Below, piece after piece: positions 23,667 through 40,794 of a stretch of 64,000 bases of DNA. The DNA comes from Promethearchaeota archaeon (GTDB lineage: Archaea; Asgardarchaeota; Lokiarchaeia; Sigyniarchaeales; SOKP01), in contig JAHLWH010000192.1 in the NCBI GenBank assembly GCA_019058015.1, positions 302 to 64,301 on the forward strand. The letters are read 5' to 3'. Every line of letters starts with the position of its first letter. The first letter of the stretch is position 1. Both the position numbers and the translations under genes were made by a program. The notes under the pieces were generated by a model. The model was not told the origin of the DNA and did not search any database. It was given only the letters and a program-made list of their open reading frames with translations.

Positions 23667-23946
23667 CTAATTGAAAAAATCATTTTTATTATTATAAATT
23701 TACCTTTTTGAATAAGAATTTAATGAACTGCTAATTTCCTTTCCGACCAATGGTTATATTATATATTATTACATTGTATATGTTAGAAAATACAAGTGGG
23801 GCTCTACGGAGTTGAATGGTGTTAAAAATGTTTTTAAAAATTCATGGATTTAATTATAGATTTAGGAATTAAATCAAAGATAAGTAAAGAAGATTTACTT
23901 AAAGTTAATGAGAATTTTAAAAAAAAAAATTAGTCTTTTTTTCTGA

Positions 23947-24903
23947 TTAAAAGTTAATTTGCCATTGAAAATGATGTTTTAATCCTTCAGAAATTTTTAT
24001 TTTTGGGGAATATCCTAAGATTTTTTTTGCTTTATCGACGTTAGAGTATGTGATATCGACATCACCCAGTTGTTTTTCAATAAATTGAATTTTCTTCTGT
24101 TTATTTGCGATGGAATACATTTGATTGACTAATTCATTTACGGTTATCGGACTCGAGCAGCCGAGATTAAACACCTCTCCAACTGCCTCTGGTTTTTCTC
24201 CTGCGGCGATTACTCCCTCGATTATATCTGATATGTATGTGAAATCTCTAAGTTGTTCTCCATCTCCAAATATGGTTATCCCATGGTTATTAAGGATGAA
24301 ATCAAAAAATTTTCGAATTGCCATATCGGGGCGTTGGCGGGCGCCATACACAGTAAAAAAGCGTAGTGAGGTGATTGGTAGTCCATATAGTCTGTGGTAA
24401 AACTCGGCGTATTTTTCGCAGCATAGTTTTGACACGGCGTATGGTGAGATTGGGTTTTTGGGGTGGTTTTCATCTACGGGGGTATATTCCGGGTTGCCAT
24501 AGACGGAGGATGAAGAGGCGTTTACAATTTGTTTTATACTTTTATTTAAACAGAATTCAAATAATTTAACGGTTGATTTGATATTGTTGTCCATTACTTC
24601 TATTGGATGGATAATTGAATAGCGCACGCCTGCTTGTGCCGCCAGATGGAATATTATATCGATGTCATGGTCAATTTCTTGTAGAGTAGAATCATCTCTG
24701 AGGTCTTTCTTAATTAAAATAAAGTCTTCCCCGTTCTTATATTTTTGAGTTAAATCGAGCAAATTTTTTTCTTTCCCTGTGTAATATTCATTGAAGTTAT
24801 CGATTAGTATTAGAAAATTTCCGTTTCCGTTTAGCTTTTCCGCCAGATGGGAACCAATAAAGCCAGAGGCTCCAGTAATTAAGATTGTTTGATTTTTTAT
24901 CAT
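23947..24903 (-). CDS. NAD-dependent epimerase (UDP-glucuronate 4-epimerase-like SDR)
   Basis: 'ILITGASGFIGSHL', 'SPYAVSKLCCE', 'RFFTVYGARQRPDMAIRKF'. Confidence 0.85.
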   Translation of the reverse strand: MIKNQTILITGASGFIGSHLAEKLNGNGNFLILIDNFNEYYTGKEKNLLDLTQKYKNGEDFILIKKDLRDDSTLQEIDHDIDIIFHLAAQAGVRYSIIHPIEVMDNNIKSTVKLFEFCLNKSIKQIVNASSSSVYGNPEYTPVDENHPKNPISPYAVSKLCCEKYAEFYHRLYGLPITSLRFFTVYGARQRPDMAIRKFFDFILNNHGITIFGDGEQLRDFTYISDIIEGVIAAGEKPEAVGEVFNLGCSSPITVNELVNQMYSIANKQKKIQFIEKQLGDVDITYSNVDKAKKILGYSPKIKISEGLKHHFQWQINF

Positions 24904-25074: not shown

Positions 25075-28000
25075 ATGTTTGAGAAACCATCACCCCAGCA
25101 ATTAGCCGAGGAGGCAGTTCGGCACTTAGATTTAGCCGAGAAATATGAGTCTCAGCAGAATTGGGCGAAAGCTATTGTAGAATATAAGAGGGCTGTTGAG
25201 TTATTAAAACAAAGTGGGTTATTATCAGTTCATGTTGATGATATAAATGAGCGGATTATGCGTTTAACTCAAGTAGCTCAACAGGAGAAGGCATTACAGC
25301 GAAAGAAAGCCGAAGCTGAGTTTTCTGGTATAAGGGATGAAGCATTTCACTTTTTGGATAAGGCAAAGTCTTTAGAAGTCAATGGTCGTTATCAAGAAGC
25401 CATATCTCGTTATTCCTCAGCTATAAAGTTATTGGAACAGGCTAAATGGGATGAGAGTTTATTAGGACAAATCAAGTTAAAACTTGAAAAATTAATGGAG
25501 ATCTTCAAACAGCAACAAATTATGGCCCATCAAAGAGCATTACGGGCTGAACAGACACCCACCAAGGTTGAAAAGTCTTTTGGAGCTCCGGAAACTACAA
25601 TTATTCCTGCAGGACTTGATAAACGAAGTAAATTACGAATGGAATTTGAGACCCAAAAACGAAAGGAAGAGGATATACAAAATCGTGCTTTTGAATCAAT
25701 TGATATGGGTAAAAAGTTTTTGGAGGAAAAGAATTTTGATGTAGCAAAATCAAAATATCTCGAAGCTTTAGATCTATTGAGATCTATTAGATGGACTGAC
25801 GAGAATTTGTCTTATTTATATAGCGATATTGATTCGGTTGAAAGGCAGAGGGTAGCATTTGAAAAAGCAGAAAGTCAGAAAGTTGAGCAAGCTGCTAGAG
25901 CTACACCCCAACCCGTTACTTCGGAAATAGCTCCTCAGAAAGAAATAGTTCCAGAAATTATGGATGTACAATCAAAAGCAATAATGAAATATGAAGCGAA
26001 GAAAAGACGTGAGGAGGAGGTTCAAAAGAAAGCATTTGAATTGATGGATGAGGGTGAGCGTTTAATAAAGGTCAAGGAATTTGATGAAGCCATGGAAAAG
26101 TATGGTATGGCTGGGCGGCTCTTAGAATCTATTGGGTGGGCTGACCAATTAGTTCATATTAATAAAATCATTGATAAGATATATAAAGATAGAGTAAATT
26201 ATAAAAAGTTGCAAGCACAGCAAATTAAAGCAAAAGAAGCAGCGGTTACTGCACCAGTCCCTGAAATCTCAGTAAAAGCAAAAGCGAATATTGAATTTAA
26301 AAAGCAGAAAATAGTAGAGTTTGAAGAACGAAATAAGCATGAAGAGCATATTCAAGAAGAAGCTTTTAAGATGATTGATATTGCAAAACGATTTGAGCGA
26401 GAGAAGCAATATGATGGGGCAATCGAGAATTTTAATAGAGCAATTGATTTATTACAATCAATAGGGTGGACTGATTATGTTAAGCCAATATACAAGTTCA
26501 TCTCTGATATTAGAAGGAGACAAGAAAATGAACAGAAAGTTCTCGAGGAGAAAAAATCTCGAGAGAAAGAGTATTTAAAATTCCAAGAGATTATAAAAAA
26601 GCATGAAAAGATTCAGGTAGACCAGGAAGTAGAAGGAATTTCCCTAAAACAGAAAGAGCTTGAAAAGACACGGGAAATAGATCACGCAAAAGAGAAAAAA
26701 GCTTTTAATGTAATAAATGAAGCCGATGAATTGGTAAGAAAAGGCAATTATGAAAAGGCAATTAAAAATTATAAAAAGGCACGTGATATTTTTAGAGAGA
26801 TAGGTTGGGCTGATCAAATTGCGACAATTGAAACTACATTAAACACGGTTCAATATAAATATCGTGAATTTTTGAAAAATGAGGAGACAGCCAAGGAATT
26901 AAAAGTTAAGCGTGCTAAGGAAGATGAAGAATTTCGAAAAACAATTGCCGAACAGATTAGAAAAGAGAGGGAAAAGTTAGAGAAGAAAAAGATCGAAATA
27001 AGAGAATATGAAACAGAGATTGAATATCGGAAGAAAAGAAAGGTTGAAGCTTTTAAAATTTTAGATGAGGCAGAAGAATACACATTACGCGGGGATTTTG
27101 ATATTGCCATAGAAAAATATTCCATGGCATTAATGATTTTTGCAGAAATTCAATGGACTGATGAATTATCACTCATTCAAGATGCTATTCGAGATCTTGA
27201 AAACAGAAAGAAAGAAATGAGACTTCTAAAACTAAAAGAAAGAGAAGATGCTTTAAAAAGAGAAAAGGAAACAAAAGAGTTTCAGGATAAAATTTCTGAA
27301 CAATTAAGAGAGGAACGTATGAAGTTAAGAGAAAAAGAGATTACAGTTAGAGAATATGAAAAAGAAGTGAAATATCGGGAAAAACAAAAGGAGAAAGCAT
27401 TTAAGATCTTAGATGAAGCTCAAAAATTGACAATCAGTGGAGATTTTGATGATGCTATAGAAAAATATGAAGTAGCTTCGATTATTTTTGCAGAAATTCA
27501 ATGGGATGATGAGTTAGCACTTATTCAGAATGCGATTCGAGAACTTGAGAATAAAAAAATTGAAAGAGAATTATGGGAACAGAAGACTCGAGAGGTATTA
27601 TTGAAACGTGAGCAAGAAACCCAAGAATTTCAGGATATGATTGCTGAAGAATTAAGGATGGAGCGTGAAAAGTTAAGAGAGGGTCAAATTGGACTAAGAG
27701 AACACGAAGCTGAAGTAAAATATCGTGAAAATCGAAAAAATGAGGCTTTTGATATTTTAGATGCAGCAGAGATGTTAATAATGAGGGGGGATTTAGATGC
27801 TACGATTGAAAAATATCATGAGGCATCGATTATTTTTGCTGAAATTCGGTGGACAGAAGAGTTGGCACTTATTCAAGGTGCAATACGCAAACTTGAGCAA
27901 CAAAAGAAAGAGAAAGAACTGTGGGAACAAATAGTAAGAGAGGAAGCTATCAAAAGGGAACAAGAAGCAAGAGAATTTCAGCATGAAATTGCTTTAATCA

Positions 28001-31000
28001 AGAGTCAGCAAGAAGAGAAAGTAAAATTTGCGCAATATATTCAGGAACAGAAAAAAATCTTATCAGAGCAGAAATTAAAGAAACAAGAAGAAGCATTGAA
28101 AATGCTTGAGAGTTCAGATGAGCATATAAGGGAAGGAAATTTAGATGAGGCTATTAGAATTCACAAATCGGCAATAGAAATTTTTAATCAAATTGGTTGG
28201 AAAGGTCCTTATCTTAGGGTAATTAAAGATACACTAGAGAATTTAAATAGACGTAAAGTTGAAATCTCACAAAAGTTGCAACGAAGGAAGGAATTAGCAG
28301 TTAAACATGAAGCTGAAGAAAGAGAATTTCAAGCGAGAATTACTCATAATATTGAGTTAGAAAAGAAAAAAATGCTTGTTAAAAAAATCACGACTCAGAC
28401 TAAAGAACGATTACTTGCTTATCGAGAAAAAAAGCGTATTGAAGCATTTGATGTAATGAATAAGGCGGAGATTTTAACAAAACGTGGAAATTTTGATGAA
28501 TCTTTAGACCATTATCGTCAAGCTGATATTATTTTAAGTGAAATTCAATTTCCCTCACAGGCAGTTAAAGAAATGATACAGAAAATTAAATTGAAACAAA
28601 AGGAACAAAAGGAGTTATTACGGAAAGAAAGAAAGCTTCAAATTCATAGGCAATTAGAGGAGGAGACATTTCAAAAAGAAATTACTCGTCGGTTAGCACT
28701 TGAGAGAGAGAAGATGATGGTGAAGAAGATAGCAATCGAAACACGCGAGAAGATAGAAGTATATCGTGAGCAAAAACGAGAGGAAGCATTTAAGATATTG
28801 GATGAGGCGGAAGATTTAACTAAAACCGGGAATTTTGAGTTGGCAATTAATGCATATCGAAATGCCGTGCTTCTTTTAAGTAAAATACAATATCCTATTG
28901 ATTCGATTCATGAAATGATTAGAAAGGTCCGGTTAAAAAAGGTTGAACAAGAGGAACTTAAACGAAGAGAAATTAAACTGGCAGCCCAAAGGGAGAGAGA
29001 ATCAAGAGAATTTCGGGATAAAATCGCTTGGGAATTAAGAAGAGAGAGTGAGAGATTAAGAAGAAGGACAATTGCACTTATAGAATATGAAGCTGAAGTA
29101 GAATATCGTGAAGATAGAAAAAAGGAAGCTTTTGATGTGTTAGATTCAGCAAAGTTATTAACACTTAGAGGAGATTTTGATGCATCTATTGAGAAATATC
29201 GGAAAACTTCTATAATATTAGCGGAAATTCAATGGACAGAAGAATTAACACTAATTCAAAATACAATTCGTCAACTGGAAAATAGGAAGAAAGAACAAGA
29301 ACTTTGGGAACAACAATCTCGAGAAGAAGCAATTAAACGAGAACTTGAAGAGAGAGAATTTCAAGAAAAAATTACTGAGGCATTAAGAAAGGAGGGTGAA
29401 AAATTAAGAGAAAAAGAGATTGCACTTAGGGAATATGAACAAGAAAAAGAATATCGAGAAAAAAGGAGGGATGAGGCATTAAAGATTTTGGATAAAGCAG
29501 AAAAATCGACTATTGCTGGAGATTTTGATACAGCTATAGAAAAATATCATGAAGCATCAATCATTTTCGCTGAAATACAATGGACAGAGGAATTAGCACT
29601 TATTCAGAACGCAGTTCGCGATCTTGAGTATAAAAAGAAAGAACGGGTGTTTTGGCAACAAAAAGCTCGAGAAGATGCAATTTGGAGGGAATTAGAAGCA
29701 AAAAAATTTCAAACAGAGATTACTGAGGCATTAAGAAAGGAACGTGAAAGATTAAAGGATAAAGAGATTGCAATCAGAGAGTATGAAGAAGAAGTAAAAT
29801 ATCGGGAGATAAGAAAAGAGGAAGCATTTCATATTTTAGATTCAGCACAAATTTTAACAATGAGGGGAAATTTCGATGGGGCTATTGAGAAATATCATGA
29901 AGCCTCAATAATTTTAGCAGAAATTCAATGGACAGAAGAATTAGAACATATTCAAAATGCAATTAGTGAGCTTAATAAGAAAGAGAAAGAAAGAGAGCTT
30001 TGGCAACTAAAATTAAGAGAGGCAGTACTTAAACAAGAGCATGAAATAAGAGAATTTCAGCATAAAATTTCCATAATGAAAAAGAATGAAGAAGATAAAG
30101 TAAAAATGGCGCAGTTTTTACAAAAACAGCAAAAGGTTTTATCAGAACAACAACTAAAAAAGCAAAATGACGCGTTGAAGATGCTTGAAGTTGCAGATAC
30201 TCATATAAAAAGAGGTCAATTAGATGATGCTATTGAAATTTATAAATCAGCAGTAGATATTTTTAATAAGATAGGTTGGAAGGGTCCTTATCTTAAAGTT
30301 TTCCAAGATACATTTGATAATTTAACTAAACGCAAACTTGAAATCGAACAATTAAAACAACATCAAATACAATTAGCAGCTAAACGTGAAGCAGAGGAAA
30401 GAGAATTTCAAGCTAAAATTGCTCGAAGTATAGAGTCTAAAAAGAAGAAGATGCTAGCAAAAGAAATTGCTATTCAAACTAGGGAAGAAATAATTGCTCA
30501 TCGAGATAATCGACGTAATAAAGCATTTGATATTATGGATAAAGCAGAGGAATTAACTAAAGCTGGAAAATTTGATGAATCATTAACGCTTTATCGCCAA
30601 GCTGATATAATATTAAGTGAAATTCAATTTCCATCATATGCGGTAAGAGAAATGATACAGAAAATCAAAATGAAGCAAAAGGAACAAGAGGAATTACGTC
30701 AAAAAGAGAGCGAACTTCAAATAAAAAGACAATTAGAAGAAGAGGCATTTCAAAGAGAAATTGCTCGTCAGGTAGCACTTGAGAGAGAGAAGATGATAGT
30801 GAAGGAAATTGAGATTGAAACTCAAGAAAATATAAGGGCATACCGAGAAAAACGCCGAGATGAAGTATTTAAAGTATTAGATGAAGCGGAATTCTTAACA
30901 AAAAGAGGAAACTTAGATTTAGCTATTGAAACCTATCGCAAAGCAGCTCTTTATCTAACTGAAATTCAATATCCAGTTGATGCAATTTATGAAATGATTA

Positions 31001-33858
31001 AAAAACTTCGCATTAAAAAAATAGAAGAAGATCAAATGAGACAGAGAAAAATTGAAGCACCTACTCAGAGAGAGCTTGAATATAGACGTTTTCAGGAAGA
31101 GATTACTCTAGAATTGAAAAGAGAAGAGGAAAGACTCAAAGAAAAAGAAATCATACTTAGAGAATATGAAAAAGAAAAGGAATATCGTGAAACAAGAAAG
31201 AATGAAACATTCAATATTTTAGATACTGCAAAACAATTTACAATTAGGGGAAATTTTGATGCCGCTATAGAAAAATATCACGAGGCTTCAATAATTTTGG
31301 CTGAAATTCAATGGACTGAGGAATTAACAAATATTCAAAATGCTATTCGTGAACTTGAAAGGAGAAAGAAGGAAAGAGAACTTTTGGAGCAAAAAGCAAG
31401 AGAAGAAGCGCTTAGGAGGGAACAAGAAACGAGAGAATTTCAATACAACATTGTGCAAATGAAGGCAATGAACGCAGAAAAAATAAAAATGGCACAATAT
31501 ATTCAAGAACAACAAAAGGTTTTATCAGAAGCAAATTATTTAAGACAAAATGAAACGCTAAAAATGCTTGAAGCTGCAGATACATATATAAAAAGGGATA
31601 AATTAGATGATGCTATTGAAATATACATATCTGCTATGGGAATACTTAATGAAATAGGATGGAAAGGACCATATTTAAAAGTAATTCAAGACACACTAGA
31701 TAATTTAAATAAGCGCAAACTCGAAATTGAACAAATCAAACAACAGCAAATTGAGTTAGCAGTTAAACGTGATGCAGAGGAGAGAGACTTTCAGGCTAAA
31801 ATCGCACGAAGTATAGAGAATGAAAGACAGAAAATGTTAGCAAAAAAAATTGTTATTCAGACTCAGGAAGAATTACTTGCTCATCGTGAAAATAGGCGTA
31901 AGGAAGGATTTGACATTATAGATAAAGCTAAAGAAATGACGAAAGAAGAAAATTTTGAGGAAGCATTAAGACTATACCGTCAAGCCGATATAATTTTAAG
32001 TGAAATTCAATTCCCATCAAACGTTGTAAAAGAAATGATTCAAAAAGTCAAATTGAAACAAAGGGAACAAGAAGAATTACGTCAAAGAGAAAGAGAGATT
32101 CAAATTCAGAAGCAATTAGAAGAAGAAGGATTTCAAAGGGAAATTGCTTATCACATAAAGCTTGAGAAAGAAAAAATGAGGTCAAAAAAGATTGCGCTTG
32201 AAGCACAAGAAATGATTAAAGATTATCGCGAACAAATAAGAGAAGAAGCATTTAGAGTACTAGAAGAGGCAGGACAATTAACCAACTCTGGAAAATATGA
32301 ATTAGCGATTAGTGCTTATAGAAATGCCACGTTAATTCTTAGCGAGATTCAATATCCTATCGATTCAATTAATGAGATGATTAAAAAAGTTCAGAATAAA
32401 AAATTAGAGCAAGAACAGCTTAAACATATAGAAATGGAGGCAGCGTTCCAAAGAGAGCAAGAAGAAAAGTACCTTGAAGAGGAAATTGGCCAAAAAGTTC
32501 AGTTAGAACAAGAAAGAATGATGAAGAAGTTAAAAGCTATTGTATCACGTGAAAAACTACAAGTACGTTTTGAACAACGAAGAGAAGAAGCATTCAAGGT
32601 ATTAGAAGAAGCAGAACAATTAATTAAGACTGGTAACTTTGATGAAGCAATTGAAACATACCGAAAAGCTTCATTAATTCTAAGTGAAATTCAATATCCC
32701 TTAGAGTCAATCAATGAGATGATCAGAAAAGTACAAATGAGAAAGTTCCAACAAGAACAGATTATTCAACAAGGAAGGGAAGCACAACTTCAGAGAGAAA
32801 GAGAAGAGGCCGATCTTAGAAGAATTATTGAAGAACGTCAGCGTCAAGAAGAGGAAATGAAAAGAGCAAGATATTTGGCTCTAAAGCAAAGAGAAGAATT
32901 AATTGCAAGAGTAGAAAGCCGTAGAGAAGTTGCATTTTCCCTATTGGAGAATGCTGATAAATTTTTAAAGCAATTTCCTCCTGATTTTGATAAATCAATT
33001 GAGTTATATTTAGAAGCTAGAAATATTCTTTTAGAAATAAATTGGGAGCCAGAAATTGCGAATTTAGACACTTTAATCAGAAATTTAAGAGAAGAAAAAC
33101 AAAAATTTATTATTCAACAAAAGCAGGAAGAGGAGGTCCGAATTCGTGCTGCTGAAGAATATGAGAAATTTAAGCAGGAAATCCTAAGAAAAAAGTTAGA
33201 AGTTAAAAGAGTTCAAGAAGAACAACGGATAAAGCTTGAAGCATTTAAATTTGAACAAGAACAACGAGAAAAACTTCAACAAGAGGGTTTTAATCTTCTT
33301 GATGATGCAAAAAAATCAGTTTTAATGCATCAGTTTAATTTTGCTTACAAACAATTTGATCAGGCTGTTGAAAAATTTAAAAGTATTGGCTGGTTTGAAC
33401 AGATAAAATATATTGAAAAGGAAATAGAAACTACTAAGAAATTAGAAGAAAATGCAATAAAAGCACAGGAAGAGGTTAAAAGAGCTCAAGAGGCACTCTT
33501 AAAACAAAAAGGATTAGAAGAACAGCGGCGAATAGAAGAAGAAACAATGAAAATACAATCAGTTAAGGAAATTACAGCAATTTCAGATGACATTATCAAA
33601 TCATTAAGACAACAACGATTAGAACAAGAAAGTATTCAAGTTGTTACTAAAGAACAAATAAAATCAGATGCTGCAAGTTTTGCAAAAGAGTTAACAAAAA
33701 TGATTAAAATTAAACAAAATTTAGTAGCAGAAATTGAAAAAGCTGAAGAGGACGAGAAACAAAAAGCAATAGAGAAAGAAAAACAAAAAACCAAGGAAGA
33801 ACTAAAAGATCTACATAAAAGGATAAAAGATGCTGCCAAAAAATCAAAGAAAAAATAA
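25075..33858 (+). CDS. Giant (2,927 aa) cytosolic repeat protein: ~25 MIT-like three-helix modules separated by Glu/Arg/Lys-rich helices
   Basis: Uninterrupted 8,784-nt ORF with no TM or signal segment. The recurring unit is 'EAFxxLDxAExLxxxGxFDxAIExYxxAxxIxxEIxW..EL..IQxAIxxLE', followed by 'REFQxxI...REYExExEYRExRK'. Confidence 0.9.
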   Translation: MFEKPSPQQLAEEAVRHLDLAEKYESQQNWAKAIVEYKRAVELLKQSGLLSVHVDDINERIMRLTQVAQQEKALQRKKAEAEFSGIRDEAFHFLDKAKSLEVNGRYQEAISRYSSAIKLLEQAKWDESLLGQIKLKLEKLMEIFKQQQIMAHQRALRAEQTPTKVEKSFGAPETTIIPAGLDKRSKLRMEFETQKRKEEDIQNRAFESIDMGKKFLEEKNFDVAKSKYLEALDLLRSIRWTDENLSYLYSDIDSVERQRVAFEKAESQKVEQAARATPQPVTSEIAPQKEIVPEIMDVQSKAIMKYEAKKRREEEVQKKAFELMDEGERLIKVKEFDEAMEKYGMAGRLLESIGWADQLVHINKIIDKIYKDRVNYKKLQAQQIKAKEAAVTAPVPEISVKAKANIEFKKQKIVEFEERNKHEEHIQEEAFKMIDIAKRFEREKQYDGAIENFNRAIDLLQSIGWTDYVKPIYKFISDIRRRQENEQKVLEEKKSREKEYLKFQEIIKKHEKIQVDQEVEGISLKQKELEKTREIDHAKEKKAFNVINEADELVRKGNYEKAIKNYKKARDIFREIGWADQIATIETTLNTVQYKYREFLKNEETAKELKVKRAKEDEEFRKTIAEQIRKEREKLEKKKIEIREYETEIEYRKKRKVEAFKILDEAEEYTLRGDFDIAIEKYSMALMIFAEIQWTDELSLIQDAIRDLENRKKEMRLLKLKEREDALKREKETKEFQDKISEQLREERMKLREKEITVREYEKEVKYREKQKEKAFKILDEAQKLTISGDFDDAIEKYEVASIIFAEIQWDDELALIQNAIRELENKKIERELWEQKTREVLLKREQETQEFQDMIAEELRMEREKLREGQIGLREHEAEVKYRENRKNEAFDILDAAEMLIMRGDLDATIEKYHEASIIFAEIRWTEELALIQGAIRKLEQQKKEKELWEQIVREEAIKREQEAREFQHEIALIKSQQEEKVKFAQYIQEQKKILSEQKLKKQEEALKMLESSDEHIREGNLDEAIRIHKSAIEIFNQIGWKGPYLRVIKDTLENLNRRKVEISQKLQRRKELAVKHEAEEREFQARITHNIELEKKKMLVKKITTQTKERLLAYREKKRIEAFDVMNKAEILTKRGNFDESLDHYRQADIILSEIQFPSQAVKEMIQKIKLKQKEQKELLRKERKLQIHRQLEEETFQKEITRRLALEREKMMVKKIAIETREKIEVYREQKREEAFKILDEAEDLTKTGNFELAINAYRNAVLLLSKIQYPIDSIHEMIRKVRLKKVEQEELKRREIKLAAQRERESREFRDKIAWELRRESERLRRRTIALIEYEAEVEYREDRKKEAFDVLDSAKLLTLRGDFDASIEKYRKTSIILAEIQWTEELTLIQNTIRQLENRKKEQELWEQQSREEAIKRELEEREFQEKITEALRKEGEKLREKEIALREYEQEKEYREKRRDEALKILDKAEKSTIAGDFDTAIEKYHEASIIFAEIQWTEELALIQNAVRDLEYKKKERVFWQQKAREDAIWRELEAKKFQTEITEALRKERERLKDKEIAIREYEEEVKYREIRKEEAFHILDSAQILTMRGNFDGAIEKYHEASIILAEIQWTEELEHIQNAISELNKKEKERELWQLKLREAVLKQEHEIREFQHKISIMKKNEEDKVKMAQFLQKQQKVLSEQQLKKQNDALKMLEVADTHIKRGQLDDAIEIYKSAVDIFNKIGWKGPYLKVFQDTFDNLTKRKLEIEQLKQHQIQLAAKREAEEREFQAKIARSIESKKKKMLAKEIAIQTREEIIAHRDNRRNKAFDIMDKAEELTKAGKFDESLTLYRQADIILSEIQFPSYAVREMIQKIKMKQKEQEELRQKESELQIKRQLEEEAFQREIARQVALEREKMIVKEIEIETQENIRAYREKRRDEVFKVLDEAEFLTKRGNLDLAIETYRKAALYLTEIQYPVDAIYEMIKKLRIKKIEEDQMRQRKIEAPTQRELEYRRFQEEITLELKREEERLKEKEIILREYEKEKEYRETRKNETFNILDTAKQFTIRGNFDAAIEKYHEASIILAEIQWTEELTNIQNAIRELERRKKERELLEQKAREEALRREQETREFQYNIVQMKAMNAEKIKMAQYIQEQQKVLSEANYLRQNETLKMLEAADTYIKRDKLDDAIEIYISAMGILNEIGWKGPYLKVIQDTLDNLNKRKLEIEQIKQQQIELAVKRDAEERDFQAKIARSIENERQKMLAKKIVIQTQEELLAHRENRRKEGFDIIDKAKEMTKEENFEEALRLYRQADIILSEIQFPSNVVKEMIQKVKLKQREQEELRQREREIQIQKQLEEEGFQREIAYHIKLEKEKMRSKKIALEAQEMIKDYREQIREEAFRVLEEAGQLTNSGKYELAISAYRNATLILSEIQYPIDSINEMIKKVQNKKLEQEQLKHIEMEAAFQREQEEKYLEEEIGQKVQLEQERMMKKLKAIVSREKLQVRFEQRREEAFKVLEEAEQLIKTGNFDEAIETYRKASLILSEIQYPLESINEMIRKVQMRKFQQEQIIQQGREAQLQREREEADLRRIIEERQRQEEEMKRARYLALKQREELIARVESRREVAFSLLENADKFLKQFPPDFDKSIELYLEARNILLEINWEPEIANLDTLIRNLREEKQKFIIQQKQEEEVRIRAAEEYEKFKQEILRKKLEVKRVQEEQRIKLEAFKFEQEQREKLQQEGFNLLDDAKKSVLMHQFNFAYKQFDQAVEKFKSIGWFEQIKYIEKEIETTKKLEENAIKAQEEVKRAQEALLKQKGLEEQRRIEEETMKIQSVKEITAISDDIIKSLRQQRLEQESIQVVTKEQIKSDAASFAKELTKMIKIKQNLVAEIEKAEEDEKQKAIEKEKQKTKEELKDLHKRIKDAAKKSKKK
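25438..33420 (+). repeat. In-frame array of 24 modules at 330-351-nt spacing (plus one shorter N-terminal module)
   Basis: The anchor is the codon three residues before the conserved W/F/Y. Anchors start at 25438, 25783, 26128, 26458, 26797, 27145, 27493, 27841, 28189, 28540, 28882, 29224, 29572, 29920, 30268, 30619, 30961, 31303, 31651, 32002, 32344, 32686, 33034 and 33382. I checked all of them to be in frame with 25075. Confidence 0.9.
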
Positions 33859-33883
33859 TTCTTTATTTCTAATTTATAACTGT

Positions 33884-35464
33884 TTAAATATTTTTTATTT
33901 CAATAAAGTATTTTTTAAGATTTCTGTTTATATAAATTATTCCAATTATCATTAGAGCCGAAATTGCTACTACAATTAATAATCTATAATCAAAAATTAT
34001 TGATAATATAAAACTTCCTGAACCACTGCCAAATATCAATTTTACAACTAAGAAATAATCATGATTGTTTGGTACAAAAATTCCGCATCTTCTATAGAAA
34101 TCGAATTGGTTAATGGTTGAAGCAGTTATTATAGGTTCTCCATAATAATTAGGATTGGTATCAAAAATATAAAGCTCTGCTTCTGCATCATTTAATAGAG
34201 CTAGATCAAAAAAATAATGCATTCCACCTTGTAAGTTAATTTTTCTACACCACACTTTTTTTTGATTAGAATTATCTCCCAAGGAAAAACAAACACTATT
34301 ATTGTTTTCAAAACTTACATATAGGTCCAATGCATCTATAGCAGCATAACCTTGAATCATTCCCCATCCTTGATAATTATCTTTAATAGCTCTTGGATAG
34401 ATGGTTTTTATGGAAGTTAAAGAAATAATACTTTTTACTTCAAGGGGTTTTAAGGAAGGGTCTTTTTCAAGCATTAATGATGCTAAGCCGCTAACCATAG
34501 GCGCTGCTACAGATGTCCCTGAAGCATATATATAAGTATCATTTCTCCCAAAATCATCCTTTGTAGCTCCATATATATCGACAGCAGGTGCGCATAAATC
34601 CGGTTTGATAATATTTTCACTAGAAGGACCTTTACTGCTTTTTGAATACATTATTCCATTGCTTTTCACACCACCGACACCAATAACCGATTTTGCATCA
34701 GCTGGAGAAGTAATTGTGTGAAAACCTGTTCCCTCTTCTCCATCATTCCCTACAGCAGCTACTACAACTATTCCTGCTTCCATCAAGGATTCTGTGATTG
34801 AATTTAAGAGTTTTATTGAATTACTATCTGTGGAAGCTTCTAACCCAAAACTCATACTCACTATTTTAATATTATATTTAATTTTATTCTCAAGAACCCA
34901 ATCAATCCCATTTTCAACGGCTTGAATAGAAGATATTAATTCATCATCCTCTTCAGAGAATTCAAAAACTTTTATGGCCACCAAATTTGCCTCAGGGGCT
35001 ACTCCAAGATATTGGGGTGAATTTCCTGCTGCAATTGATGAAACGTATGTTCCATGCGAATTAATATCCTCCGGACTTTTTTCTTTTTGATCAAAAGCAT
35101 CGTAAAACGCAACAATTTTTTCATTCCAAGAGATGGTTCCATTATTTGTGAAAACATCATGATATGGATAAATTCCCGTGTCAAATATTGCAATAGTTGA
35201 ATTTTTTCCGCTTAAATCATCATCGATAAAAGATTTATTTAAGCTAATTAAATCACTCACTTGAAATTGAGAAACAGCAGCTGTCTTAATGGGTGCTTGA
35301 TTGGTTTGAAGATTCAAATTATAATTTGGATTTAATGAAAAAGTTATTTGATTTAAATGATTCATTAAAAAAAGATAGGGAGAATTAAGCCAGATTACTA
35401 TTAACCAGAAGAAAATCCATTTTTTATTTAAAAATTGTTTGCACCCATTTGAATAGTAAAACAT
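33884..35464 (-). CDS. Subtilisin-like serine protease (peptidase S8), N-terminal signal/anchor and C-terminal TM
   Basis: Catalytic triad contexts are 'IAIFDTGI' (Asp), 'NSHGTYVSSIAAG' (His) and 'SGTSVAAPMVSGLASL' (Ser). There is a hydrophobic N-terminus and a C-terminal 'LLIVVAISALMIIGIIYI' segment. Confidence 0.85.
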   Translation of the reverse strand: MFYYSNGCKQFLNKKWIFFWLIVIWLNSPYLFLMNHLNQITFSLNPNYNLNLQTNQAPIKTAAVSQFQVSDLISLNKSFIDDDLSGKNSTIAIFDTGIYPYHDVFTNNGTISWNEKIVAFYDAFDQKEKSPEDINSHGTYVSSIAAGNSPQYLGVAPEANLVAIKVFEFSEEDDELISSIQAVENGIDWVLENKIKYNIKIVSMSFGLEASTDSNSIKLLNSITESLMEAGIVVVAAVGNDGEEGTGFHTITSPADAKSVIGVGGVKSNGIMYSKSSKGPSSENIIKPDLCAPAVDIYGATKDDFGRNDTYIYASGTSVAAPMVSGLASLMLEKDPSLKPLEVKSIISLTSIKTIYPRAIKDNYQGWGMIQGYAAIDALDLYVSFENNNSVCFSLGDNSNQKKVWCRKINLQGGMHYFFDLALLNDAEAELYIFDTNPNYYGEPIITASTINQFDFYRRCGIFVPNNHDYFLVVKLIFGSGSGSFILSIIFDYRLLIVVAISALMIIGIIYINRNLKKYFIEIKNI

Positions 35465-35572
35465 GAATTATATTTATCCATAAAAAATTGATTTATTTAT
35501 TGAATAAGAATAAAAGTTAATAATTATATGAATCACTTAATTTTATTTTTAATCCAATAAGTTGTAGGTATT

Positions 35573-37165
35573 ATGGAACCGATGGAAAAAAGGGAATTTT
35601 CCTTAGAAGAAAGAAAGATGTATGCTCGTCAGCAGCTCGTTGAAGGCTGGGATCAAGAGACTATAAAAAATAGTTGTGCTTTGATTATTGGAGTTGGTGC
35701 TCTCGGGTGCGAGATCGCTAAGGATTTAGCTTTAATGGGTATAGGGAAATTAATTTTAGTTGATATGGATAAAATTGAAACCTCAAATCTCTCAAGACAA
35801 ATGTTATTTCATGCAGGAGATGAGGGTAGAACAAAAGTTGAGGTTGCCGCAGAGCGTTTAAAATTGATGGCTCCGTTTCTCGAAGTTGAGTATTATTTTG
35901 ATAAATTACAAAATCTTCCAATGAAGGTGTATGAAGAATCGGATGTTATTGTTGCTGCATTAGATAATGTTAGGGCAAGAATGGATTTAAACAAGATTGC
36001 TTTAAGATTAAAAAAACCAATGGTTGAGGGTGGTACTGTAGGATTTGAGGGGCACGTTCAAAACATTATCCCAAAAGGCTCAAATATAAAATTCCATGAG
36101 AGAGAAAAAGTTATAGATGAAATAGTGCAAGAGAAATTATGGAATTTATCTGAAGAAGAATATACTGAATATTTTGCTGCTCAAGAAAGTATAGAAAAGC
36201 TTGAGGAGCGAATATCTCTATTAAAATCTCAATTTATCGAGCAGGTTGTTGAAAAAGTACGCCAGCAAGTTGGAAATGAGTTTGATGAAAAATATTCTGA
36301 AGATTATCTTGATCAAACAGCTTGTTATAGGTGTCTAGTTCCTATTCCACCACCTGATGATAAATTAATTGCAGCATGCACATTAAAAGGTATTCCGAGA
36401 AATAGAAATCATTGTGTTTTAAAAGCAGAGTTAAATTTTGAAAAGAAATATGGACGGATGCCAGATTTGGATAATGATGAGGATATATACAAATTAATGG
36501 AATTGGCTCAAGAGGAATTAGAATTATTACAAGAACGAGTTTTTAAAGAAAACGTCTCTGATGAGCAATTATCAACATTATCAGAAGAAGAAATGCAAAA
36601 GTGGAAGATTAATATTCGAGATACTTTCGGTCCAAATTATGTATTTGAAGATATGGAAAATATTTTAGGAAATAAAATCGCTGCGGTTCAGACTGTTAGT
36701 TCAATTATCGCAAGTATTCAATCCCAGGAGGCACTAAAATTAATATTTAGAGCAAAGGGAAGGGATATTGGTCCCCCCATGGATCCTCCTTATGTAAATT
36801 ATAGCGGAATTTATGGAATATTCGAGCAGGTTCCGGTGTTTAAACGAGAAGATTGTATTGATTGTGGGGATATTGAAGGAGAGGAAAATGTTAGTATTGT
36901 AGTTCCATTTAATTCAAAGGTTAAAGACATTTTTAGTGCATTGGATGTTTCTGGTTATAAATTAGATTCCGAAAAGTGGATGATCACGAATTCAATGAAT
37001 AAAGAGATTCTTTGGCATCCCTCAATTCCCACTTTTAAAGATCCTGAAGCTCTATTACAAAGCCTAAAAATAACGAGTAATGACGTTGTAACATTTACAC
37101 CTTTAAGTAACGATATTGGTGAATTAGAAATAAAAAAATATAATGTAATCGTTTCCTATTTGTAA
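35573..37165 (+). CDS. Ubiquitin-activating-enzyme (E1)-like protein, ThiF/MoeB/UBA family
   Basis: Adenylation domain: 'IIGVGALGCEIAKDLALMGIGKLILVDMDKIETSNLSRQMLF' and 'LDNVRARMDLN'. Zn-type Cys pairs: 'CYRC' and 'CIDC'. Eukaryote-type active-site context: 'AACTLKGIPRNRNHC' (Cys codon 36377-36379). There is also a ~90-aa C-terminal domain. Confidence 0.85.
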   Translation: MEPMEKREFSLEERKMYARQQLVEGWDQETIKNSCALIIGVGALGCEIAKDLALMGIGKLILVDMDKIETSNLSRQMLFHAGDEGRTKVEVAAERLKLMAPFLEVEYYFDKLQNLPMKVYEESDVIVAALDNVRARMDLNKIALRLKKPMVEGGTVGFEGHVQNIIPKGSNIKFHEREKVIDEIVQEKLWNLSEEEYTEYFAAQESIEKLEERISLLKSQFIEQVVEKVRQQVGNEFDEKYSEDYLDQTACYRCLVPIPPPDDKLIAACTLKGIPRNRNHCVLKAELNFEKKYGRMPDLDNDEDIYKLMELAQEELELLQERVFKENVSDEQLSTLSEEEMQKWKINIRDTFGPNYVFEDMENILGNKIAAVQTVSSIIASIQSQEALKLIFRAKGRDIGPPMDPPYVNYSGIYGIFEQVPVFKREDCIDCGDIEGEENVSIVVPFNSKVKDIFSALDVSGYKLDSEKWMITNSMNKEILWHPSIPTFKDPEALLQSLKITSNDVVTFTPLSNDIGELEIKKYNVIVSYL

Positions 37166-37174
37166 AACTTTCAA

Positions 37175-37804
37175 TTATACTTTATTTTTTACTTGTGCTT
37201 TCCTAATATTCGCAATGAATTTTTCAATAAAGTAAGTTTTTATTTTAGCATTTTTACCTGCTTCCATATCAAACTCAGAATCCCCTATATAAATAGCTTG
37301 TTCGTTAGAAATATTAAAATGTTTTAGAATTTTGTAAAGACCCTCGGGATCGGGTTTCCATTCAACAACATCTTCTCTTCCAACTATATATTGAAATTTT
37401 CCTAAGAGATTCTGTTTAGACAAAATAGAAAAAATTGTTGAGCGAAAGTTTAAAGAAAAGATTGCTAATTTAATATCTGAATTCAATCCCAACTTTTCTA
37501 AATTCTCGATAAAAAAAACGATTTCTTCAAAGAAGGTATATTCTTTTATATTATCTCTTTCAAATTTTTCAATAGTTCGAATATAAGATTCAATTAATTC
37601 GGGATCTCCTCTCGCTACAACTTTTTGTAAACCTAAAGTAATTCTACTAAATGTTTGTTCTTCTCCAAAATCATCCATATATTTATCACTAAGTAATTTA
37701 CGCAGAGCATCCCAATCAACATGTAATTTTACAAGAGTTCCATCAAAATCAAAAACTACTACTCGCAAATCTTTTGGAAAATCCAATAATTCACTTAGCA
37801 ACAT
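37175..37804 (-). CDS. HAD-superfamily phosphatase
   Basis: Motif I 'VVVFDFDGTLV' and motif IV 'GDSEFDMEAG'. Confidence 0.8.
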   Translation of the reverse strand: MLLSELLDFPKDLRVVVFDFDGTLVKLHVDWDALRKLLSDKYMDDFGEEQTFSRITLGLQKVVARGDPELIESYIRTIEKFERDNIKEYTFFEEIVFFIENLEKLGLNSDIKLAIFSLNFRSTIFSILSKQNLLGKFQYIVGREDVVEWKPDPEGLYKILKHFNISNEQAIYIGDSEFDMEAGKNAKIKTYFIEKFIANIRKAQVKNKV

Positions 37805-37911
37805 TAATTAATTTATTTTTATTTTTTATTCATTTATTATTATGGTGGATTAATTTTTGAAAGAAAAGAAAAGAAAAATGAAGTCTTTAAAGATATTTCT
37901 ATAAAAGATTT

Positions 37912-38421
37912 CTAATCCATGGCGTATTTTTTTGTCCAGCTCTCTGCTTTTTTATCAAATTTCGATTTTTGTCTAAAATATTGTTCTCCCGCTTCATGAT
38001 TTAAAGGATCGCCAGGATTAAAAAATGGTGGTTCCACATGCATCATTCCCTTCAATGCTTCGACAATATTTGTTAAAGTTTTAGAAGGAGTCCATCCTGA
38101 AGCTCCAGTAGAGGCATCAACCTTACCTACAAGATCGGGATTTATAAGATCAAGACAGATATTCAATTTTCCTGGCGGAATTGAAGAGTCGATATTAGGA
38201 TGCCACATTAAAGTATGGGCATAAACATATGGAGGTGCAAAAGGATAATTCTCAGGCATTTTTATCTCAAACAAGAATCTACCCCCACTATATGGAGTTG
38301 CTGGTTTTCCAATTATAGTAAGCCTTAAATGATCTATTGATCTTCCCCAAGGTTCGATAATTACAAAATTAATTTCTTTAAATGCCTCAATTGCTTCTGC
38401 ATAATCAGTTTCTTCTCTAAT
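37912..38421 (-). CDS. Ubiquitin-conjugating enzyme (E2, UBC fold)
   Basis: 'GKPATPYSGGRFLFEIKMPENYPFAPPYVYAHTLMWHPNIDSS...GKLNICLDLI' is the UBC HPN...C signature (Cys codon 38157-38155). The C-terminus 'AESWTKKYAMD' resembles UBE2D '...REWTQKYAM'. The track ORF (TTG at 38274) removes the first ~50 residues of the fold, and the frame is open up to 38424. Confidence 0.8.
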   Translation of the reverse strand: MREETDYAEAIEAFKEINFVIIEPWGRSIDHLRLTIIGKPATPYSGGRFLFEIKMPENYPFAPPYVYAHTLMWHPNIDSSIPPGKLNICLDLINPDLVGKVDASTGASGWTPSKTLTNIVEALKGMMHVEPPFFNPGDPLNHEAGEQYFRQKSKFDKKAESWTKKYAMD

Positions 38422-38664
38422 TTTTTACACCTTATAAGTTTAATTGTAGTCTCTATTTAAAATTATATTATAAAAATCATTATGTTAAGTATTTTTATTA
38501 TAATTGAGTATAGTTAAAACTTTATTTAATTATACATCTTGATTTTTATTAATAAATCTTTTTAATAGATTTTTAGTTTAGTTAATTTCTTTAATATTTA
38601 ATTTAATAGACCAATGAAATATTTTAAAGAATATATTTAATAAATAGCCTAGTATTATTACCAA

Positions 38665-39120
38665 TTGGTTATTATGGGAAAAGAATTACCTAAGAAACAT
38701 TTAAAGGAGAGAATTTTAAAATTTTTGAATAAGAGGAAGGTTTTAGTCTTATGCACATGCAATAATAATATTCCTCGCGCAACTCCGCTTGATTTTTACA
38801 ATGATGGATTAGACATATATATGACACCTGTAGGTGGAGCGAAAGTAGAAAATCTAAAAGCGAACCCTATAGCTAGTATAGGAATATATACTCCGCTTTC
38901 CGAAGGTGAGGTTCAAGGATTGCAAATAACATCAGCTAAAATAAAATTTATTTTTCCGGATGATGAGGATTATGAACATGCGAGAAAGATAGTTAAAAGG
39001 AAAGCAAAAATGTTTTTGAAGATAGTCCCTGAAAAAATCGATTATTTAGATTATTCCTTAAGTAAAGAGGGATTTTCAAGGTTTCAAGTTTTAGAATTGA
39101 ATAATAGTCAAAAAAAATGA
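38665..39120 (+). CDS. Pyridoxamine-5'-phosphate-oxidase-like FMN-binding split-barrel protein
   Basis: 'VLVLCTCNNNIPRATPLDFYNDGLDIYMTPVGGAKVENLKANPIASIGIY' fits the PNPOx-like pattern. The ATG at 38674 is the likelier start. Confidence 0.55.
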   Translation: MVIMGKELPKKHLKERILKFLNKRKVLVLCTCNNNIPRATPLDFYNDGLDIYMTPVGGAKVENLKANPIASIGIYTPLSEGEVQGLQITSAKIKFIFPDDEDYEHARKIVKRKAKMFLKIVPEKIDYLDYSLSKEGFSRFQVLELNNSQKK

Positions 39121-39219
39121 GCTTTGAATTATTATCTATAAATATTTTTTAAGCTAAGTTTTATTAAAGACTTATAAACTGACAAAAATTAAATATTTTA
39201 TAATTTTAAAAAAAGATTT

Positions 39220-40578
39220 GTGAAAAAAATGGTTACAAAAATAGTAGTCATTGGAATGGGATATGTTGGAATTCCAATGGCAGTACTTTTAGCGGACATT
39301 GAAGATTTTCAGGTTATAGGAATACAACGTCGCTCAGAAAGATCTGGTTGGAAAATTGATTGTCTTAATGCTGGAAAGAATCCATTCGAGGGTGAGGAGC
39401 CTGGGCTCGATGAATTGCTTGCCAGAGTGGTAAAGAATGGCAAATTTAGAGTTATTGATGATTATTCGGTTTGCAAGAATGCAGAGTATATTTTAATTGA
39501 TGTTCAAACTCCCGTAGATGCAAAAAAGATACCTCGCTATGAAGCTTTAAGAGAAGTTTCAGAAAATATATCGAAATATTTATCCAAAGGGACTACTATA
39601 ATAATTGAATCAACCGTGGCTCCTGGAACAACCAATAATTTAGTTAAACCAATTCTGGAAGAGGGGAGTGATTTAGAAAGGGGAAAAGATTTCTATCTGG
39701 TATTTTCATTTGAGAGACTTATGCCTGGAGCATTAATAGATTATATTGTAAATATGCCAAGGGTGATTGGTGGAGGTTGTGAAGAAGCAAATAAGCGAGC
39801 ATTAACATTATATAGTCGTGTGATAAAATCTGAACTTCATATTACAGATACATTGACTGCGGAATTAACTAAAGTTATAGAAAATACATATAGAGATATA
39901 AATATTGCATTTTCAAACGAAATGGCATTATTATGTGAAGATTTTAATCGAAATATTTTTGAAATTATCAATCTTATCAATATGAGAAAAGATAGAATGA
40001 TGCATATACCTGGTTCAGGCGTTGGAGGTCATTGTTTGACCAAAGATCCATGGTTATTAGTATATGGGCATGATAAATACACAGAAAAGAAGTATTGTAC
40101 TAAAATGGTGCCACTCTCGAGAAAAGTTAATGAATTTATGCCAGTTCATACAAGTGAGTTGCTTGACGAGGCTTTTATAGAAGCAGGAATAGATGAAAAC
40201 CCTTTTAAAATTGCAATTTTAGGGGTTGCATATAAAGGAGATTGTGATGATACCAGAAATACTCCAGTAGTATCGATTGTTGAAAAGGTTAAGCGTCTAT
40301 TTTCATATAATAAAATCGAAATCATTGCTCATGATCCATATGTTAAACCGATGGACTATAATACTTCAGAATTGACCAGAGATCTTGATAAAGCAGTTAT
40401 AGGTGCTGATGCAATAATTATCGCTACAGATCATAGTATGTATAAACATTTAGATTTAGCTGACATCAGAAAGAAAATGAGACATTCCGTAATTATTGAT
40501 GGTCGCAATATTCTTACTAAAAAAGAATGTCAAGAACTTGGGTTCATCTATAGAAAAGTCGGAGAAGGACCAAATTAA
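39220..40578 (+). CDS. Nucleotide-sugar dehydrogenase (UDP-ManNAc/UDP-glucose dehydrogenase family)
   Basis: 'KIVVIGMGYVGIPMAVLLA' (Rossmann fold) and 'GSGVGGHCLTKDP' (catalytic Cys region). Confidence 0.85.
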   Translation: MKKMVTKIVVIGMGYVGIPMAVLLADIEDFQVIGIQRRSERSGWKIDCLNAGKNPFEGEEPGLDELLARVVKNGKFRVIDDYSVCKNAEYILIDVQTPVDAKKIPRYEALREVSENISKYLSKGTTIIIESTVAPGTTNNLVKPILEEGSDLERGKDFYLVFSFERLMPGALIDYIVNMPRVIGGGCEEANKRALTLYSRVIKSELHITDTLTAELTKVIENTYRDINIAFSNEMALLCEDFNRNIFEIINLINMRKDRMMHIPGSGVGGHCLTKDPWLLVYGHDKYTEKKYCTKMVPLSRKVNEFMPVHTSELLDEAFIEAGIDENPFKIAILGVAYKGDCDDTRNTPVVSIVEKVKRLFSYNKIEIIAHDPYVKPMDYNTSELTRDLDKAVIGADAIIIATDHSMYKHLDLADIRKKMRHSVIIDGRNILTKKECQELGFIYRKVGEGPN

Positions 40579-40662
40579 TCCTAACTTCTCTTTTTAGAAA
40601 AACTAAAAAATAAATATTAATTACACATATTAATTGATATTTGTTGGAAAAAATTTAAACAA

Positions 40663-40794
40663 CCCCTGGTAGCTCAGTGGTAGTAGCGCACGGCTGTAGA
40701 TTTTTATCGCGTATTGAGAAAAGAATCAATGAAAATACGTCAGCTAAAGCGAATAGATACCGTGTGGTCGCTGGTTCAAATCCGGCCCAGGGGA
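40663..40794 (+). tRNA. tRNA-Tyr (anticodon GUA) with ~59-nt intron at the canonical 37/38 position
   Basis: My manual fold: acceptor CCCCTGG/CCAGGGG; D arm GCTC-AGTGGTAG-TAGC; anticodon stem CACGG/CCGTG with loop CT-GTA-GA; T arm GCTGG-TTCAAAT-CCGGC; discriminator A. The intron spans ~40700-40758. No CCA is encoded. Confidence 0.85.

Follow-up and report, generated by a model that had tools for sequence, protein, structure and literature searches.

The stretch of Promethearchaeota DNA analysed here, 64 kb long with a G+C content of about 29 % (hereafter the window), carries close together a gene for a giant protein built of MIT-like repeats, a gene for an anchored S8 protease, and genes for E1- and E2-type enzymes of ubiquitin conjugation. 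The explanation that we favour, with a probability of roughly 0.6, is that the Loki-type Asgard archaea have this arrangement from their common ancestor, as an inherited gene order, and that it does not represent a co-regulated ubiquitin/ESCRT module. The three kinds of gene are most likely transcribed separately, and they would have remained neighbours because the whole chromosome region is rarely rearranged in this lineage (the former Lokiarchaeota, which are the Promethearchaeota of the NCBI taxonomy). The closest public relative of the window is a contig of a Promethearchaeota metagenome-assembled genome (MAG), with 96 % identity in E1.

The MIT-array gene (25075–33858, + strand) encodes a protein of 2927 aa for which the best Pfam family is MIT (PF04212, 147.5 bits). 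It converges, across a gap of 25 nt, on the gene for an anchored S8 subtilase (33884–35464, − strand; Peptidase_S8, 157 bits), which in turn diverges from the E1 gene (35573–37165, + strand; 530 aa; ThiF, 191 bits, with a weak match to E1_4HB); the AT-rich 108 nt between the latter two (35465–35572) presumably hold the promoters of both. Farther to the right are a gene for a HAD-superfamily phosphatase (37175–37804, − strand; HAD_2, 104 bits, with a DFDGT motif) and the gene for a UBC-fold E2 (37912–38421, − strand; 169 aa, ATT start; UQ_con, 89.7 bits against a cut-off of 27). An earlier note, made from the sequence alone, had listed these five genes, and its coordinates, strands and domain calls all hold when checked against the open reading frames (ORFs) and Pfam. 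It was also right that these genes are not an operon in the window, where the strand pattern is + − + − −, and the MIT–E1–E2 region lacks the combination of a single strand, short gaps and no internal promoter by which an operon is recognized.

The note had gone on to propose, by guilt by association, a functional connection between the MIT array, ubiquitin and ESCRT, to be abandoned if the adjacency proved unique to this genome, and had asked whether the linkage is conserved in relatives. We examined 10 kb on each side of E1 in 80 species-representative Loki-type genomes, fetched with an alignment of 18 E1 orthologues, and derived the gene order from tblastn searches with the window proteins and from de-novo clustering of all ORFs. 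Any two of the 81 E1 sequences are between 60 and 98 % identical (median, 75 %). Of 72 informative loci, one of them the window, 71 have the MIT array upstream of E1, as have loci L086–L089, beyond these; L057 is the only genome that has E1 but not the array. The adjacency is thus far from unique to the window genome and the linkage itself is conserved, but the functional link does not follow from it, as the pair is retained no more often than unrelated pairs.

This can be seen when retention is scored as the presence of the next backbone gene in loci with enough flank. The values are 71/72 (99 %) from E1 to the MIT array, 59/68 (87 %) from E1 to HAD and 53/58 (91 %) from HAD to E2, set against 89–100 % for pairs of unrelated genes: MIT to RACo 31/35 (89 %), RACo to Ras 10/10 (100 %), Ras to aspartate kinase 7/7 (100 %), E2 to a small protein designated f5 50/54 (93 %), f5 to a protein designated f7 43/44 (98 %), and f7 to histone deacetylase 34/35 (97 %). 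None of the three pairs of interest is conserved above its unrelated neighbours, and we have therefore dropped the 71/72 adjacency as evidence of selection, family clustering having shown the unrelated flanking genes to be equally conserved. Direct adjacency, defined by the lack of any ORF of at least 100 aa between two genes, is found in 71 % of cases for MIT–E1, 52 % for E1–HAD and 59 % for HAD–E2, and in 93–100 % for aspartate kinase–Ras, Ras–RACo, RACo–MIT and f7–histone deacetylase.

The consensus order, in which the genes called optional are those not always found, begins with aspartate kinase (+), Ras (−), RACo (−), the MIT array (+), optional S8 (−) and E1 (+). It continues with an optional methyltransferase or GNAT gene (+), HAD (−), an optional Fe–S protein and others, and E2 (−), and then with an optional M1 peptidase and GFO oxidoreductase, f5 (+), f7 (−) and histone deacetylase (+). 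The syntenic backbone occupies at least 34 kb, from about 17 kb to about 51 kb of the window, and loci with shorter arrays together with an independently annotated contig (L088) extend it upstream to an Arf-type GTPase and downstream to an M24 peptidase.

At loci without S8, in 51–52 species, the MIT gene and E1 form a tandem pair, both on the same strand and separated by a median of 138 nt. A BRE/TATA-like motif (B recognition element and TATA box), ARAGWRTTTAWAT, is located 35–52 nt, mostly about 50 nt, before the E1 start in 41 of 80 loci, which argues for separate transcription of the MIT gene and E1; in the window itself the motif does not occur in this exact form. The median gaps on the other side of E1 are 20 nt for E1–HAD and 107 nt for HAD–E2.

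The note's statement that no ubiquitin, RING, JAMM, ESCRT-III or Vps4 gene is visible in the 64 kb is borne out by both Pfam and phmmer. Among the larger non-nested window ORFs of at least 70 aa, the Pfam scan found no member of the ubiquitin, RING, JAB/MPN, Snf7 or Vps4 families. Queries for phmmer were ubiquitin, NEDD8, SUMO, Urm1, an archaeal ubiquitin-like protein, a JAB protein and a Cys-rich RING-like protein; no ubiquitin-like or JAB-like ORF was detected among stop-to-stop ORFs of at least 40 aa in the window and 80 related loci, although very divergent beta-grasp proteins may escape such a search, and the Cys-rich RING-like query found nothing in the window or the 80 loci. Within 10 kb of E1 no ubiquitin, E3, deubiquitinase or ESCRT gene was found in any of the 80 genomes. 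A small ORF just after E1 in L087 was considered as a ubiquitin gene and rejected, being a membrane protein.

Ubiquitin and ESCRT genes have been described as occupying two separate regions in Lokiarchaeota and one cluster in Hel- and Heimdallarchaeota and the Odinarchaeum genome (PMC9192718), and the window, with ubiquitin-system enzymes and no ESCRT genes, fits the Loki pattern. It shares with the clusters of Odin, Heimdall and Hel (PMC9192718) the idea of ubiquitin genes beside ESCRT-related ones, but has no ESCRT-I, -II, -III or Vps4, the MIT-like fold being its sole ESCRT-flavoured element. How ubiquitin came to feed ESCRT is central to the origin of eukaryotic membrane traffic, and Asgard gene linkage is one of the few clues to it. 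Such linkage must nevertheless be weighed against local synteny, and on that scale the MIT–E1 signal amounts to no more than that of an aspartate kinase beside a Ras GTPase.

The MIT-array protein and its family

A unit profile counts 25 MIT-like three-helix units in the giant protein, with a period of about 115 aa (348 nt in the gene, by Tandem Repeats Finder). By sequence the units can be sorted into four types, which follow one another as A A A B C D. The MIT score, which is summed over the whole protein and compares with a cut-off of 30 bits, is the highest among all Pfam families, with TPR families below it (TPR_11, 99.9 bits; TPR_2, 75 bits). A super-repeat of six units is duplicated at 27133–31443 on the + strand (27133–29364 versus 29212–31443, an offset of 2079 nt), the copies being 73.6 % identical over 2259 nt in a self-blastn comparison, and it is partly because of this duplication that there are 25 units here as against 14 or 18 in most relatives. 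About nine independent assemblies, with identities of at least 90 %, also give a length of 2927 aa, which is therefore no assembly artefact. The protein is cytosolic, with no signal peptide or transmembrane segment seen by eye, and it is the only MIT-like protein that the unit profile detects in the window.

Structures were modelled with AlphaFold (AF2), the protein's own units serving as the alignment. The model of a single unit (predicted local distance difference test score, pLDDT, 91) has helices at 2–22, 25–41 and 45–76, and about half of its top 50 Foldseek matches in the PDB are MIT domains, including those of VPS4B, yeast Vps4, Sulfolobus Vps4, NRBF2, MITD1, USP8, spartin and katanin; the Sulfolobus Vps4 domain (2v6y) aligns with a template-modelling (TM) score of 0.72 and a root-mean-square deviation of 1.6 Å over 71 residues. 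In the two-unit model (pLDDT 92) helix 3 of one unit and helix 1 of the following one form a single uninterrupted helix of 94 residues, of which a charged stretch of about 48 residues is exposed. The structure that ranks first against this model is the calpain-7 tandem MIT; none of the solved structures resembles the pair of units in its entirety (TM score 0.33 or less), and there is no spectrin repeat among the top 50 matches of either model. A sequence-profile search of the PDB gave consensus TPR proteins as the best matches, by way of one short motif per unit, and whole-unit matches of marginal E-value to the MIT domains of calpain-7, VPS4A, Sulfolobus Vps4, NRBF2 and Atg38. TPR profiles thus fit a single short motif in each unit of about 115 aa, which is not the pattern of a TPR solenoid, and the units are modelled as separate three-helix bundles on a long single helix and not as a packed solenoid. 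If the helices are straight, we infer from ideal helix geometry that each unit would span about 11 nm and the whole protein about 0.25–0.3 µm. The giant protein may therefore be pictured, on these models, as cytosolic beads on a rod, 25 MIT-like bundles joined by unbroken charged helices.

The array unit is like the MIT domain of Vps4/CdvC (PF04212; PDB 2v6y, 2w2u and 4u7y) in being a three-helix bundle of about 70 residues, but the array has no AAA ATPase or other enzymatic domain, it has 25 copies rather than one, and its helix 3 passes without a break into helix 1 of the following unit through the charged stretch of about 48 residues. Eukaryotic tandem-MIT proteins, of which ULK3, Vta1 and Atg1 are also examples, resemble it in that calpain-7 (PDB 8uc6, whose IST1-bound tandem is the top two-unit match) has more than one MIT bundle per chain; in these, however, two or three bundles are packed together, whereas in the array family 4–25 bundles stand apart on a rod. 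Spectrin rods likewise consist of three-helix bundles of which the last helix continues into the next repeat, although the array bundles are shorter and leave about 48 residues of each connecting helix exposed.

When a collection of 5.8 billion proteins was searched with the full-length protein, 51 homologues were found, of which two are very weak; the other 49 are all from Promethearchaeota/Lokiarchaeota and all are named 'hypothetical protein'. Pfam finds nothing in the homologues beyond MIT, TPR-type repeats and a few faint matches, and none of those found is fused to a ubiquitin- or ESCRT-related domain. We found no published description of Asgard MIT arrays in a literature search that did not extend to subscription journals, and a later survey of ESCRT diversity makes no mention of them (PMC10936438). 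The array is thus a Loki-specific family, and what is new is the family itself and its place upstream of E1 since early in the lineage.

Size classes of 4, 7, 9, 10, 14, 18, 20 and 25 units occur across clades. Within clades the lengths are tight, at 1640–1665 aa in about 19 species and 2116–2136 aa in 30 species despite sequence divergence, which suggests that length itself matters, in the manner of a ruler, and is under selection. Both ends of the protein are conserved at every unit number. The C-terminal tail (33778–33855, + strand) is made up of an amphipathic helix and then a polybasic end (..LKDLHKRIKDAAKKSKKK), with a family consensus of approximately (E)REE-V/I-D-x-L/I-K-R/K-M-I/L-K-D/E-x-x-KKKK; the strict form is present in 64 of 75 family ORFs, and the tails of the window and L001 are variants that the regular expression for the tail does not match. 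With acidic residues leading in, hydrophobic ones spaced i, i+4 and basic ones at the end, the tail may, speculatively, be MIM1-like (a type 1 MIT-interacting motif, or MIM), and we note that Asgard MIM1-like motifs use Ile in place of Leu (PMC7240154). Such a tail could serve in self-association, recruitment of Vps4 or membrane binding.

The most likely job of the giant protein would be multivalent binding of MIM-type helices such as those in ESCRT-III tails; Asgard ESCRT-III proteins do bear MIM1- and MIM2-like motifs (PMC7240154). The arrays, should they bind these tails, would be the first known example, in any organism, of a multivalent scaffold of MIT domains.

The conjugation enzymes, the protease and their relatives

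E1 is of the eukaryotic type and contains a ThiF-type adenylation domain; its best solved relatives are UBA1, UBA7, UBA3, SAE2 and UBA6, with MoeB/ThiF ranking lower. Its nucleotide-binding motif GVGALGCE is invariant in the 18 orthologues, as are C251, C254, C269, C428 and C431, which include two CxxC pairs, and residues from about 430 to 530 are also conserved in this alignment. Cys269 lies in AACTLKG (codon 36377–36379), and in a low-scoring local alignment the segment 'pddKliaaCTLkgiP' is matched to 'ppEKsIPlCTLrsFP' of yeast Uba1, the CTL portion of which we take to be the catalytic-Cys motif; Cys269, set in an inserted Cys domain, is the predicted catalytic Cys of E1. For E2 the best solved relatives are Ubc1 and UBE2D, and H74-P75-N76 and Cys89 (38157–38155) align with the HPN and active-site Cys of yeast Ubc1; a 13-residue insertion follows Cys89. 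Judging by these motifs, intact in both enzymes, and by homology, E1 would adenylate a ubiquitin-like protein and load it onto Cys269, and E2 would receive it on Cys89.

The E2 gene has no ATG, GTG or TTG before codon 50, and the N-terminal third of the protein, which is needed for the UBC fold, is present only if translation begins at ATT. A GGTG sequence is located a few bases upstream of this ATT, with a stop codon just before (38419–38432, − strand), and the start at 38421 is correct, the in-frame ATT matching the M/V/L start of more than 50 orthologues. Orthologues in L032, L072, L077, L031, L033 and L034 also lack a canonical start, and the ATT may reflect deliberately low translation of a very conserved protein: in tblastn comparisons E2 identity is 74–88 %, mostly 81–88 %, across Loki species. 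HAD is about 42 % identical across the same loci, as against about 85 % for the adjoining E2.

In a search of 1.8 billion cluster representatives E1 was matched at full length by just one further 50 %-identity cluster, and the next-ranked relatives are Asgard-type E1s of about 415 aa, followed by eukaryotic UBA1-like proteins. One such E1 (P0125) is in an operon coding in order for a ubiquitin-like protein (88 aa, ending QQAGG-I), E1, E2 and JAB, an arrangement found in L083/L084, and the E2 of that operon is 46 % identical to the window E2 and has the same insertion after Cys. Another (P0123, in L082) has a gene for a Cys-rich protein of 433 aa directly upstream and a 65 %-identical E2 8 kb away. 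A third (P0121, in L081), either a paralogue or a distant relative, adjoins genes for a Ras GTPase and a GNAT/NMT-like protein; a 365-aa gene upstream of E1 in this locus was considered as a short array and rejected, being a GNAT/NMT-like acetyltransferase. The unit profile finds no MIT units near E1 in L081, L082, L083 or L084. The MIT–E1 linkage thus does not persist in distant lineages, the partial exceptions, L087 and L089, both being within the lineage.

The classical operon, Ub-E1-E2-(RING E3)-JAB, is known from Caldiarchaeum subterraneum (PMC5654768) and is represented here by L083/L084. Its E2 is 46 % identical to that of the window and its E1, over the matched stretches, 43 %, but the window E1 exceeds it in length by about 110 residues, the HAD gene separates E1 from an E2 on the other strand, and no ubiquitin, JAB or RING gene was found within 10 kb of E1 in the 80 genomes. 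The pair is thus already known in kind, and from its relatedness to the operon enzymes we regard it as the Loki version, detached from ubiquitin and deubiquitinase. In the Loki lineage the ancestral Ub-E1-E2-JAB operon would have been pulled apart, leaving E1 and E2 to face each other across the HAD phosphatase and ubiquitin, the deubiquitinase and any E3 to be encoded elsewhere in the genome.

The S8 protein matches the Pfam profile throughout (positions 1–288 of 288), and its FDTGI, HGTYV and SGTSVAAP motifs contain the D/H/S triad. It has hydrophobic segments at both its N- and C-termini, is anchored in the membrane and probably faces outwards. The gene is found at the MIT–E1 junction in 20 of 73 loci, and in L086 as well. 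These include the deepest E1 branches (the window with L001, L044 with L053, L012, and L032 with L042) and part of the main E1 group, and the gene is missing from the whole 18-unit clade. A recent insertion was rejected, since the same junction is occupied in the deepest branches; loss of a long-standing gene is therefore the likelier history, and we picture S8 as an outward-facing but dispensable protease, long established at this junction and lost from many species.

Two loci in this comparison have features of their own. The E1 gene of L086 (16960–18546, + strand), next to an array of 1759 aa, is split into ORFs of 140 and 378 aa, by either a frameshift or a sequencing error. The 433-aa protein of L082 (8622–9923, + strand) has no Pfam match, an acidic N-terminus and a RING-like pattern of Cys and His at its C-terminus, and is a candidate E3.

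Alternative explanations

Several points weigh against an inherited gene order as the whole explanation, or against an MIT-like array. The retention of the array beside E1 is on a par with the highest measured for any pair, and the pair is kept where the backbone is broken, on both sides in L087 and upstream in L089, so that there may be some selection for its adjacency. The baseline with which retention was compared was drawn from 10 kb either side of E1 and not from whole genomes, and the species sampled are not independent, given the median E1 identity of 75 %. Read-through transcription from the MIT gene into E1 is possible in the species with the tandem arrangement. The connection to ubiquitin and ESCRT proposed in the earlier note was biologically reasonable, as eukaryotic MIT proteins such as AMSH and USP8 link ubiquitin and deubiquitination to ESCRT-III. 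With regard to the fold, per-unit scores are weak, only two MIT stretches passing Pfam individually, and all Foldseek E-values for the unit are 0.08 or higher, weak as expected for a small fold.

If the genes did constitute a functional module, the array would work with E1 and E2 either as a ubiquitylated substrate, with ubiquitylation controlling its binding to ESCRT-III and selection keeping the genes together, or as a scaffold that brings ubiquitin-charged E2 to ESCRT-III. The constancy of the array upstream of E1, the close tandem arrangement of the two in many species, the survival of their adjacency in L087 and L089, the linkage of ubiquitin and ESCRT genes in other Asgard lineages and the ties of AMSH and USP8 to ESCRT-III through their MIT domains would all suit such a module, but the pair is retained no better than unrelated pairs and is directly adjacent less often, E1 has a promoter-like motif of its own at about half of the loci, and no partner gene is within 10 kb of E1 in the 80 genomes. 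Furthermore, E1 and E2 outside the lineage do without the array, no array homologue is fused to a ubiquitin or ESCRT domain, and L057 keeps E1 without the array. We consider a module unlikely, although the persistence of the pair in L087 and L089 and the fact that only L057 lacks the array lead us to retain a small chance of a functional link. More elaborate, and decidedly improbable, is an MIT array that is a Loki adaptor coupling ubiquitin conjugation to ESCRT-III/Vps4: the MIT-like beads of a rod of about 0.3 µm would grip the MIM tails of an ESCRT-III filament, the conserved MIM1-like helix at the C-terminus would bring in Vps4 or another bead, and the neighbouring E1 and E2 would switch the array on or off by ubiquitylation. 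This would be an archaeal solution, without eukaryotic counterpart, to a task of the ESCRT-0/Bro1/AMSH type.

A different possibility, which would make the ubiquitin–ESCRT rationale moot, is that the repeats are not functional MIT domains at all but form a generic TPR-like helical rod, acting as a structural spacer or a spectrin-like cytoskeletal cross-linker unrelated to ESCRT. The TPR scores, the match of the unit profile to consensus TPR proteins through one short motif, the weak per-unit MIT and Foldseek values, the spectrin-like continuity of helix 3 with helix 1 in the model and the fixed unit number within clades, which suits a ruler or spacer, are all consistent with this. We nevertheless find it rather doubtful: over the whole protein MIT outscores every other Pfam family, MIT domains are among the natural proteins matched over the full unit in the PDB profile search and make up about half of the best structural matches, with no spectrin repeat among them, and the bundles are isolated where a TPR solenoid would be packed. 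It is also conceivable that the real unit is E1–HAD–E2, with HAD an accessory of conjugation that removes pyrophosphate or a phosphorylated intermediate and with the array and S8 as bystanders. HAD does lie between the two enzymes in most species, with E1 close by and with E2 preceding it on their shared strand, and its DFDGT motif is intact, but it is missing here from 9 of 68 loci, in at least seven of which E2 is still present; other genes have been inserted at the E1–HAD junction in 30 of 63 loci and at the HAD–E2 junction in 22 of 54; it evolves fast beside a slowly changing E2; and it is absent from the ubiquitin operon of L083 and from L082. We regard this as highly improbable. Inheritance of a stable gene order, which we prefer, leaves two objects for experiment, namely a Loki E1/E2 pair detached from the ancestral operon and giant rods of MIT beads that were previously undescribed.

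Other features of the window and related loci

By Pfam and family clustering, the upstream part of the backbone in the window begins with a small ORF (17114–17608) and continues with the Arf/Roc GTPase with a coiled-coil tail (17663–19519, + strand), aspartate kinase (20189–21592, + strand) and a Ras-family GTPase (21878–22408, − strand). In the window's lineage two sugar epimerases (22692–24903, − strand) take the place that RACo occupies in most relatives. Downstream, the backbone consists of a GFO/IDH/MocA oxidoreductase (43201–44136), the small protein f5 (44218–44637, + strand), the unknown protein f7 (44664–45218, − strand), a histone-deacetylase-family enzyme (47042–48256, + strand) and the M24 peptidase (50329–51444, + strand). 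Between E2 and the oxidoreductase a block of about 4.5 kb (38665–43141), coding for PNPOx, UDP-glucose dehydrogenase, two membrane ORFs and an S33 hydrolase, has been inserted and is confined to the window's lineage.

Several GTPases of the Ras/Arf family are encoded in the window according to Pfam. In the protein of 17663–19519 an N-terminal domain of unknown type precedes the Arf/Roc GTPase, which a proline-rich linker of about 200 aa joins to a coiled coil at the C-terminus; the coiled coil has a sub-threshold CdvA-like match (24 bits against a cut-off of 30) that may be coiled-coil noise. Its gene is shared as a member of the backbone in L023, L054 and L088. Loci from the JBHL-series MAGs labelled Thor-, Odin-, Hermod- or Hodarchaeota (L013, L014, L015, L017, L021, L023, L035, L041, L049, L067 and L075) nest in Loki-type E1 clusters and share the Loki order, and their taxonomic labels therefore look unreliable.

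A HEPN-domain gene beside a minimal nucleotidyltransferase gene (16015–16829, − strand) has the usual layout of a toxin–antitoxin pair. The product of 59696–60994 (− strand) clearly matches (E-value 3×10−13) the GIFT domain of IFT52, a eukaryotic protein of intraflagellar transport. An NAD-dependent sugar epimerase/dehydratase (7570–9951, − strand) is interrupted by an intein (Intein_splicing, residues 223–648), and with glycosyltransferases at 2–5 kb, the epimerases and the 4.5 kb block, the window is rich in genes for cell-surface sugars.

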